A stretch of DNA of 64,000 bases, taken from a virus (taxonomy: Duplodnaviria; Heunggongvirae; Uroviricota; Caudoviricetes). Under the pieces are notes generated by a model that was given only the letters and a program-made list of their open reading frames with translations, searched no databases and was not told where the DNA came from. This document shows, one piece after another, positions 12,443-54,011 of this stretch; position 1 is the first letter of the stretch, and each line of letters begins with the position of its first letter. Made by a program: the position numbers and the translations under genes. The DNA is taken from the IMG/VR virus record IMGVR_UViG_3300047393_000100; one strand, written 5' to 3'.

Positions 12443-12483
12443 GATATATAAAATTCAAGTAATCATATAAAAAAAAGAACAGT

Positions 12484-52406: not shown

Positions 52407-53054
52407 ATGAATTTTGTAACAATTGACTTTTCACTTAATTCCCCTGGTATCTGCGTATTTAAAGATAATAAATACAATTTTATTGGTTATTTAAAACCAA
52501 AGACAGGAACTAAAAAGGAACAAATATTACAGGAGGAACTTAACCTTCTGACCGATACTCAAATCTCGCATCAACCTGACTGGACAAATAACGAATCCTA
52601 TTCAAAGAGCGAGATGATTAAAATCCAAAGACATACCCAGACTGCAAAGGACATTATTGATATGATTATAGAAATCACAGGTAATGATTCTCCCTTTGTT
52701 ATTGCGTTTGAAGGATCCTCTTATGGTTCTTCTGCCGGAACTAACAACATAATAGATATGGCCGCTGGTGCTGCAATTCTTAAAATGGAAATGATGTCTA
52801 GACTTGAAGTCTTAGAAATGATGACCATCGCACCTTCAACTATTAAAAAATTCATACATAAAGGAAATATGAATAAAAATGATATTTGGCCTTTTTTCTT
52901 AGATGATATTGATAGGGATAATATTCCATTAATTAAATATTGTAATAAAAATATTGGAAAAGATATTAAAAACGTTCCCAAGCCATTAGATGACCTAGTT
53001 GATGCATATTTTATGTTAAAATATGTAAAATCATTTTTTATTAAAGATATATAA
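52407..53054 (+). CDS. RuvC-like Holliday junction resolvase
   Basis: IDFSLNSPGI, AFEG.SYGS, APSTIKK..KGN..K and DDLVDAY acidic motifs. Confidence 0.82.
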   Translation: MNFVTIDFSLNSPGICVFKDNKYNFIGYLKPKTGTKKEQILQEELNLLTDTQISHQPDWTNNESYSKSEMIKIQRHTQTAKDIIDMIIEITGNDSPFVIAFEGSSYGSSAGTNNIIDMAAGAAILKMEMMSRLEVLEMMTIAPSTIKKFIHKGNMNKNDIWPFFLDDIDRDNIPLIKYCNKNIGKDIKNVPKPLDDLVDAYFMLKYVKSFFIKDI

Positions 53055-53056
53055 AT

Positions 53057-53143
53057 AAAATAATATAAGGACAATGGGTTCGAACCCACTTTAACAATTA
53101 GTCTGTTAAATTACTTATATTATTTTTTAAAAATAGACTAATT
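53057..53143 (+). ncRNA. Structured 5' leader RNA (three-way junction plus pseudoknot) of the homing endonuclease gene
   Basis: P1 53057-69/53114-26 (13 bp); P2 53075-88; P3 53090-96/53104-10; the P3 loop pairs with 53136-42, just upstream of ATG 53147. Confidence 0.6.
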
Positions 53144-53146
53144 ATT

Positions 53147-53836
53147 ATGTTATACCATTACGTATACCGTGTTACCTCTCTAGTTGAGAATAAACACTAT
53201 TATGGATTAAGAACTTCAAAAATTAAACCACAATTAGATTTAGGTATTAAATATTTTACATCTTCATGCGATACTGTATTTCGAAATGACTTCATACAAA
53301 ATACACATAATTATAAGTGTATAATTGTTAGGGTTTTTAATAATAGAATGGATGCTTCTCTGTTTGAAATATTTTTACATAATAAATTCAACGTTGGAGT
53401 GTCTACTAAATTTTATAATAATGCCAAATCAACCGAGACAAGTTGTGACATGACAGGTTTTAAACATACTGAAATTAGTAAACAAAAAATGTCAGATGCT
53501 AGGAAAGGTAAAGAGCCATGGAACAAAGGATTAATTAATCCTTATAATAAGATTACTTTAACTAAAATGTCAGATGCTAAAAAAGGTAAAGAGCCTATAA
53601 ATAAAAATAAAAAAGGAATGTGGAAACCTTCTACTGAAAACCTGATAAATTTATCAAATTCAATGAAAGGAAGAATACTAAGCGAAGAACATAAAAATAA
53701 TCTTAGCAAGCCAAAGAAATCAACTGAAAATTATTCATATCCAAAAGAAAGAGTTACTTGTCCGTTTTGTAACAAGTCCGGAGGAAAACCTTCAATGTCT
53801 AGATTCCATTTTGATAATTGTAAAAAGAGACTTTAG
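53147..53836 (+). mobile_element. Free-standing GIY-YIG homing endonuclease with NUMOD3 repeats and a C-terminal zinc-knuckle motif
   Basis: HYVYRVT...KHYYG.R, YFTSS, FYN; HTEISKQKMSDARKG / SEEHKNNLS repeats; CPFC...RFHFDNCK. Confidence 0.88.
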
Positions 53837-53892
53837 ATTTCTTAAATCATTTAGCTAGAAGTTTATTTTACCCTCAGGCTTAAAGACATAAG

Positions 53893-54011
53893 TTATATTG
53901 TCAGGTTACTGGATTGTTTCAGAAAAACTAAAAATAAATTAAAATAGTTTTCAAGTACCTATAAAAAGAATTAAAAATAGTACTGAAACTAAATTAAATA
54001 AAGATATATAA
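53893..54011. promoter_or_regulatory. Divergent pair of AAAC-N15/16-WATATAA promoters
   Basis: Minus strand: TGAAAC (53921-53916), 16 nt, AATATAA (53899-53893). Plus strand: TGAAAC (53984-89), 15 nt, TATATAA (54005-11). Confidence 0.5.

Follow-up and report, generated by a model that had tools for sequence, protein, structure and literature searches.

Homing endonucleases need to be expressed, but only sparingly, and the hairpins of T4 that mask the ribosome-binding site (RBS) of their messages are the textbook solution. RNA structures of this kind regulate I-TevI, I-TevII, I-TevIII, segB, and mobE (Aeh1); in the T-even phages each mask is a single hairpin with the late promoter placed within its 5' arm or behind it, which lets late transcripts escape (PMC2988022). 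In the present study, we analyzed an element at 53057-53146 of a 64,000-nucleotide stretch of viral DNA (IMG/VR record IMGVR_UViG_3300047393_000100; the whole stretch is called the window, and all positions refer to it), which directly precedes the gene for a Seg-like homing endonuclease. Our best explanation, to which we give a probability of roughly 0.7, is that the element is the 5' leader of the endonuclease mRNA and acts in cis as a translational brake, the loop of its third arm (P3) being predicted to pair with the ribosome site of the gene.

As in the T-even masks, a cis-acting RNA structure upstream of a homing endonuclease is here predicted to cover the ribosome-binding region, a late promoter is associated with it, and the presumed purpose is to keep a risky nuclease from being expressed too strongly. 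However, the present element has a conserved three-way junction, a loop dedicated to the ribosome site, and a palindromic loop; its fold is portable, being common to unrelated nucleases; and the window copy masks a start region without a Shine-Dalgarno (SD) sequence. Furthermore, the complete structure lies behind the promoter, a transcript could lose no more than the outer portion of the first stem (P1), and the arrangement by which late transcripts escape the T-even masks is not seen. The best reading is that the element is related to the RBS-masking hairpins of T4 but more elaborate, and structurally distinct from them. Another homing-endonuclease message that begins with a pseudoknotted three-way junction is that of I-DirI, which has the lariat-capping GIR1 ribozyme upstream, a catalytic RNA of ~190 nt that is derived from group I introns and belongs to the twin-ribozyme introns of eukaryotic rDNA. 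Unlike GIR1, the present element is only ~70-100 nt long, has no Rfam ribozyme match, and has no intron context.

The three-armed leader and its closest relatives

The sequence-only reading had described three stems at this place, with a P3 loop exactly complementary to GACTAAT and a pairing that extends to 9 bp, and all of these parts were found again by inspection of the sequence together with a repeat finder. On the plus strand, the P1 5' arm AAAATAATATAAG (53057-53069) can form 13 perfect pairs with the 3' arm CTTATATTATTTT (53114-53126), which continues into a U tract. Between the two arms lie the junction strand J1/2, GACAA (53070-53074; family consensus GACAR), the P2 hairpin TGGGTTCGAACCCA (53075-53088), which presents the self-complementary hexamer UUCGAA, the P3 hairpin (53090-53110), and the junction strand J3/1, UUA (53111-53113; family consensus AUUA, followed by a closing C). 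In P3, TTTAACA (53090-96) pairs with TGTTAAA (53104-10), and the 7-nt loop AUUAGUC (53097-103) is the anti-ribosome-site loop. Its partner, GACUAAU at 53136-42, is invariant in the relatives and stands in the translation initiation region (53132-53146), 4 nt before the ATG at 53147 (-11 to -5). The pairing between the P3 loop and the start region comprises nine perfect Watson-Crick pairs (53096-104 with 53135-43), or 12 pairs with one G-U; the nine-pair contact covers -12 to -4 and stops 3 nt short of the AUG. A potential mini-hairpin, P4 (AAUA/UAUU), might display GACUAAU. As for P2, the palindrome reported earlier is perfect in the window copy but is peculiar to it, because A replaces C at 53085 (GAAACC) in the relatives and in two other sequencing runs, leaving a 3-bp stem and the loop G-UUCGAA-A.

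Simple controls for chance were made in the window. Counting perfect inverted repeats with arms of 13 bp or more and no more than 60 nt between the arms, we found four, compared with 0.21 expected from Markov simulations. For complementarity to the start region, the 9-nt match takes third place among 51 window genes.

At the same site of the RuvC-like resolvase gene, into which the endonuclease gene is inserted (see below), the element occurs in three distinct sequences only, namely the window, L063 (identical to L066 and L067), and L070, with one leader copy per genome. Among the three copies, P1, P2, and P3 have one compensatory pair each, and two further changes involve G-U pairs. The stem cells of these copies are paired in 97.8% of cases at the site, compared with 35-49% when the partners are slid, and nine of the ten substitutions in the leader are within stems. 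The identity of the leader among the copies is 81-91%, that of the first 300 nt of the gene is 69-72%, and that of the upstream region is 50-77%; in these comparisons the leader is a conserved island between the cassette copies. Between cassettes that are otherwise alike, the element is either there or missing as one block of ~75 nt. The two types of cassette at this site, with the leader or without it, amount to a natural experiment. A metagenome scan upstream of ~80 endonuclease homologues yielded no further copy of this architecture, and among viral contigs a looser pattern with fixed loops returned only the same four.

A family of leaders before nuclease genes

Using a pattern derived from the junction and P2 (GGACANNGGGTTCGAANCC), we found, besides the T-arms of tRNAs, seven further distinct leaders in viral contigs. 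A covariance model built from this site only (R1) detects six of these seven (E 3e-5 to 3e-3). A second model (R2), which was built from eight members and run on five records, added nine copies to the earlier ones, seven of them within one phage record of 224 kb; it scores the window copy at 89.8 bits, its training set including near-identical copies. Together, the pattern scan and the two models link at least 17 distinct leaders in uncultured phages, and, judged from these sequences, the element is a member of a widespread, uncatalogued family of three-armed leaders before nuclease genes. The plan common to the seven leaders found by the pattern is a late promoter, P1, G-GACAR, P2, P3, and AUUA-C with the 3' arm of P1, from which a linker leads to the ribosome site and the start codon. 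The window junction (AAG-GACAA ... AAAUUA-C) fits the shared consensus G-GACAR / AUUA-C, and, like the family, the window member has a late-type promoter on one side and a nuclease gene on the other, and lies on the strand of that gene. In most other members P1 is 4-9 bp long, and in the canonical members TATAAATA ends 4-8 nt before it. The genes downstream encode unrelated nucleases (GIY-YIG subfamilies, treble-clef/DUF723, and REase-like), several of which are decayed. The 224-kb record (G007, a near-complete viral record; L229, L234, and L237-L243) has nine leader copies in all; several of them precede truncated endonuclease remnants of 24-34 codons, and in this phage the leaders seem to outlive their genes.

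In an alignment of 18 copies, which was fitted to the model and leans to its structure so that the figures are somewhat generous, 89.5% of the cells are paired, compared with 64.5% after shuffling (none of 500 shuffles as high) and 46-54% with slid partners, and 23 of the 24 stem pairs have changed on both sides. The three-armed fold is confirmed as more than chance. The three-way junction with loop-to-start pairing that had been proposed from the window alone is supported by this covariation: when homologous upstream regions are compared, both the junction and the loop-start pairing are real and covary across the family.

In every member, the P3 loop, often together with part of its 5' arm, complements the Shine-Dalgarno or start region of its own gene, and the complementary letters differ from copy to copy; members of the SD type are, for example, the copies in L229 and L236. 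On average, the longest perfect complement measures 6.65 nt when loop and ribosome site belong to the same gene and 4.14 nt when they do not (n=17; 0 of 5000 permutations, p<2e-4), and the duplex energies are -13.0 and -7.45 kcal/mol, respectively. The start region of the window pairs well with its own P3 only. Because this masked start region is an A/U-rich landing site without an SD, the target that is selected would be the landing site of the ribosome and not the SD motif. Uncultured phages appear to use an answer to the problem of sparing expression that is more elaborate and portable than the T4 hairpins, in which the anti-ribosome-site loop is rewritten for each gene, and orthogonal pairs of loop and target could serve as natural parts for RNA-based translational off-switches.

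The self-complementary P2 loop is also a trait of the family; both this trait and the place of the element in a widespread family had escaped the sequence-only reading. Among the nine copies that were found by the model and not by the pattern, a sample biased by the training of R2 on UUCGAA loops, six have a palindromic hexamer in five different words (TTGCAA, TTATAA, TCATGA, TTCGAA, and ATTAAT), whereas shuffled loops would give 0.89 copies, and none of 20000 shuffles reached the observed number. A further two of the model-found copies have central 4-mer palindromes, and palindromic hexamers are absent from the P3 loops. The P2 loop keeps its self-complementarity while its letters change, and the hexamer is flanked by purines in the commonest form (G-UUCGAA-A), with A/G and A/A in two other copies. 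Since the inner positions of the P2 loop are unable to pair within a single hairpin, pairing between two RNAs is the simplest reading, and the loop probably joins two leader RNAs. Two other readings around P2 were rejected. A second TTCGAA, inside the gene at 53280, is not a credible partner for P2: the relatives do not keep it in their amino-acid context, and this genome has the word often. A six-codon leader peptide, MGSNPL, could be read across P2 in two of the copies, those of the window and L063; L070, however, has ATC in place of the ATG, and the changes are explained by stem compensation.

Loop contacts of both kinds have well-known counterparts, namely the dimerization initiation site of HIV-1 (the SL1 kissing loop) in a retroviral genome RNA and the ColE1 RNA I/RNA II pair, which are plasmid replication RNAs. 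P2 resembles HIV-1 SL1 in its self-complementary hexamer with purine flanks in the commonest form, which is a sequence prerequisite only, and P3 resembles the ColE1-type antisense kissing loops in that all 7 nt of the loop are complementary to the partner segment. The leaders differ from both in that they belong to phage mRNAs, the P3 contact is intramolecular, and the dimerization is putative.

The sequence-only reading did not recognize the element as a described family, and the databases bear this out, since there is no Rfam match for the window region (E up to 10), for the relatives (gathering score), or for the canonical members (E up to 1). The family is absent from Rfam 15, and our literature search found no description of such a leader. 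int-alpA (RF02996) is similar in being a small multi-stem RNA of phages and mobile elements without known function, but its covariance model has no match in the window region (E up to 10), in the full records of four relatives, or in the canonical members (E up to 1). A canonical leader has no significant blastn match, and the leaders of Seg-like genes in cultured phages (phiKT1024, Paraglaciecola GD virus 1, and VAC66) are short or unrelated. A tRNA or tRNA-like RNA was rejected: ARAGORN predicts none in the window, there is no Rfam tRNA at this place, and the T-arm register with a 7-nt loop gives only two pairs; the covariation favors the P2 register with an 8-nt loop over the T-arm register. 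Self-cleaving ribozymes (hammerhead, twister, pistol, hatchet, and HDV-like) were also rejected, with no Rfam match at E up to 10, and the hammerhead core is missing from the junction strands (GACAA, C, and UUA). In prokaryote genomes, the looser pattern matched one unrelated stretch as well as an RNA-like gene found in marine group II archaea; neither has the architecture, and we regard both as chance matches. The archaeal stretch is itself conserved and RNA-like (L186-L193 and L195).

Proposed translational control and its alternatives

The leader is preceded by the candidate promoter motif GATATATAA (53046-53054, plus strand), with an exact TATAAATA at 53050-57. The window has 11 copies of the motif GATATATAR, on the plus strand only and upstream of genes (for example at 12443, 16004, 25982, 39587, 45397, 51719, 54003, and 58574), including structural genes. 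Since 10 of these 11 copies are 12-41 nt before a start codon, the term 'late-type', which had been applied to the motif from the sequence alone, is a fair inference, and GATATATAR is probably the late-type promoter of this phage (or phage group). The copy of the endonuclease leader is 101 nt before the ATG because the structured element lies between. Some of the GATATATAR copies are followed by ATATATC, which makes a short inverted repeat. In the T4 late-promoter geometry, the transcript is expected to begin at the base of P1; by this analogy, only the inner 6-10 bp of the 13-bp P1 of the window would probably be contained in the promoter-proximal transcript.

We propose that the leader is transcribed from the late-type promoter of the cassette itself, with a presumed start near P1, and that its RNA would fold into the three-way junction of P1, P2, and P3. 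The 7-nt P3 loop would then pair with positions -11 to -5 in a loop-loop or pseudoknot contact; in an alternative form, P3 would open and a 12-bp duplex would reach up to the AUG. Either form would hide the A/U-rich, SD-less landing site of the ribosome, so that the endonuclease would be translated poorly, and it is because the landing site is paired in either conformer that we commit to repression, to which the complementarity and the energy models point. When all of P1 is included, the fold of lowest energy is the three-way junction, and about half of the start region is then unpaired; when the 5' end is at 53060 or beyond it, the 12-bp anti-start duplex is preferred, and 18-20% of the start region is predicted to be unpaired. 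In both the window and L070, no more than ~3 kcal/mol separates the junction from the anti-start duplex, and the 7-bp loop contact alone is worth about -5.4 kcal/mol. The predicted pairing spans -15 to -1 and would cover the ribosome-binding region, as the T-even RBS masks do.

An SD-like word precedes only 3 of the 52 genes in the window, and the leaders of these 52 genes are A-rich, notably at positions -15 to -11 and -3; thus, an unpaired start region should matter in this phage. The scarcity of SD words fits an SD-independent host, such as Bacteroidota. A contig from an RNA library, for which carry-over of DNA is possible, spans 53068-53355 with zero differences and links the leader to the start of the gene. 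In the RNA-library run X8 there is no cover over 52700-53067 and the contig starts at 53068; since contigs cannot reveal transcript ends, we draw no start site from it.

Of the functions that had been suggested for the element, translational control is the best supported, with the P3 loop tracking its own ribosome site. We found nothing that points to autoregulation by the protein or to self-cleavage. The suggestion of an RNA partner of the nuclease fared no better: the closest relatives at this site (L106 and L108) lack the element and unrelated nucleases share the leader family, which argues against an enzyme-specific partnership.

Several observations weigh against a translational brake. 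The promoter lies upstream of the whole inhibitory structure, and no escape route for late transcripts is evident; in folding predictions, truncation of P1 favors the masked form and does not disfavor it. The z-score for folding of the single sequence is unremarkable (-1.8), and, as it is so weak, the support for the fold rests on the comparison with relatives. P4 is not stable on its own, and the folding software, which cannot score pseudoknots, is unable to treat the junction and the loop contact together. At the RuvC site both the P3 loop and its target are invariant, so that the evidence for their pairing comes from other members of the family. Furthermore, the endonucleases at this site that are most similar to that of the window, those of L106 (a TARA contig from the metagenome scan; 75% identical) and L108, do without the leader, so that it is dispensable for the cassette.

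One alternative is that the leader senses concentration by dimerizing, P2-P2 pairing setting the output of the nuclease, for example through RNase III cleavage or the availability of P3. The excess of palindromic hexamers in P2 over the expectation from shuffled loops, the two 4-mer palindromes, the lack of such hexamers in P3 loops, the inner positions that cannot pair in one hairpin, and purine flanks like those of the HIV-1 site all speak for such pairing. However, the copies come from a model that was trained on UUCGAA loops, three of the nine have no palindromic hexamer, and a single leader copy per genome at this site would allow homodimers only. We consider it unlikely as the principal function, and it is compatible with the translational brake, not exclusive of it. 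A combination of the two, in which P3 locks its own ribosome site and P2 pairs two messages tip to tip so that translation or decay depends on concentration, is a tentative extension that we regard as possible, if somewhat doubtful. If true, this two-input leader would be a retrovirus-like RNA dimerization signal used for gene control in phage mRNAs, and in an SD-less phage the lock would have been retargeted from the Shine-Dalgarno to an A/U-rich landing site. Less probable than either is a stabilizer of the 5' end or a processing signal, by which the junction would guard the mRNA against 5'-end-dependent decay or mark a cleavage, without control of translation. The position of TATAAATA 4-8 nt before P1 in the canonical members, which would place the transcript start at the base of the helix, and the resemblance of the P2 loop to a tRNA T-loop (UUCGA) suit this idea, but it leaves the tracking of the ribosome site by each P3 loop unexplained, and no tRNA or tRNA-like match exists.

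The remaining alternatives seem to us very improbable. The P1 3' arm leads into six U residues, as would be expected if P1 and the U tract formed a leaky attenuator that ends most transcripts before the nuclease gene; but the terminator scan makes no call at the element, P1 consists of A-U pairs only, the other members have mostly 4-9 bp and no consistent U tract, the genuine terminators of this phage are compact hairpins, and the RNA-library contig passes through the site. An element acting as DNA has no better prospects, be it a protein operator (like the autorepressor site of I-TevI), a cruciform, or a miniature mobile insert bounded by P1. The P1 5' arm adjoins the promoter, the ~75-nt block is present or absent between similar cassettes, and the palindromic hexamers look like protein sites, but changes to G-U wobble pairs, together with the G/A flanks of the P2 loop, which are conserved and asymmetric, speak for an RNA; the nucleases that follow the leaders are unrelated and differ in their DNA-binding domains; and there is a single copy per genome without target-site duplication. 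We assign the lowest probability to a fold encoded by the opposite strand as a small antisense RNA. The inverted repeats are nearly symmetric, and the window copy alone folds marginally better on the antisense strand; the family fold, however, favors the mRNA (sense) strand, as 15 of the 19 copies fold more stably in the sense orientation (mean 2.6 kcal/mol; Wilcoxon p 8e-4). At the RuvC site, 97.8% of the cells pair in the sense and 95.7% in the antisense orientation, two G-U pairs becoming A-C mismatches on the other strand, and the promoter motif is found nowhere on the minus strand of the window.

The phage, the endonuclease cassette, and other leaders

The source of the window is an uncultured T4-like phage, in which a primase, a tail tube, and a homologue of gp32 were found (30% G+C); a DNA search of the locus against cultured phages gave no match, and none of them is close in DNA sequence. 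The RuvC-like resolvase gene (52407-53054, plus strand) was identified by its match to PHROG 159, and its C-terminus was compared with those of 40 relatives found through the RuvC-like protein. The endonuclease gene (53147-53836, plus strand) was taken for a GIY-YIG/NUMOD3 homing endonuclease in the sequence-only reading, and matches to Pfam NUMOD3 and PHROG 314, together with tblastn matches to SegD-type genes, agree with this identity. The 40 relatives show that the endonuclease is a cassette of ~825 bp within the 3' end of the RuvC-like gene, which has a different ending in the relatives without the cassette. The last 13 codons of the resolvase (~53013-53054) come from the inserted cassette, giving the new ending ...KDI, and the stop codon is inside the promoter motif GATATATAA. 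The displaced original 3' end of the resolvase gene (53837-53883, plus strand), which marks the 3' edge of the cassette, is identical to the resolvase 3' ends in endonuclease-free relatives. The cassette and this remnant together occupy 53012-53883. In run X6, from a related sample, contigs join across the cassette, that is, they have the joint without the endonuclease, and these cassette-free contigs are deeper than the cassette-bearing ones.

The spacer between the resolvase gene and a 62-codon open reading frame (53884-54002) is conserved among the relatives, and the same intergenic region is present in L062-L101. It contains a long-range inverted repeat (UUUGUUUCAG ... CUGAAAC) before the next promoter motif, and may be another structured RNA or a regulatory region.

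Other arrangements were observed before related endonuclease genes. The cassette of L107, at the same RuvC site and with an enzyme that is 60% identical, has a different hairpin, the loop of which matches its own leader. In L107:570-802, this long hairpin lies upstream of the motif GATATATAAT, and its apical loop UUUGUUUGGC complements the leader downstream of the motif; as in the T4 type, the mask would be carried by read-through transcripts only.

A second class of leader, ~90 nt before the starts of related GIY-YIG genes, was observed at L001-L009, L116, L126, L133, L146, L152, L154, L156, L160, L162, L168, L172, and L177. It consists of TAAATA, a hairpin that covaries and has the conserved internal loop C(G/A)CG, and CUCUAG(U/A)C. 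For this last motif, covariation is seen both with the second codon (AUG-A/U-CCAG) and with GGAG(U/A)C; this class has no Rfam match at gathering score. A third class is found ~130 nt before the endonuclease starts of L137, L138, L143, L149, L159, and L165. Here TATAAATA is followed by a P1 (AUAAGAG/CUCUUAU) that encloses a long A/U hairpin, the loop of which pairs with the segment just 3' of it, and 9 of the 11 predicted pairs have compensatory changes. Since the SD region of this class repeats the 5' arm of its P1, the 3' arm would be an anti-SD sequence.

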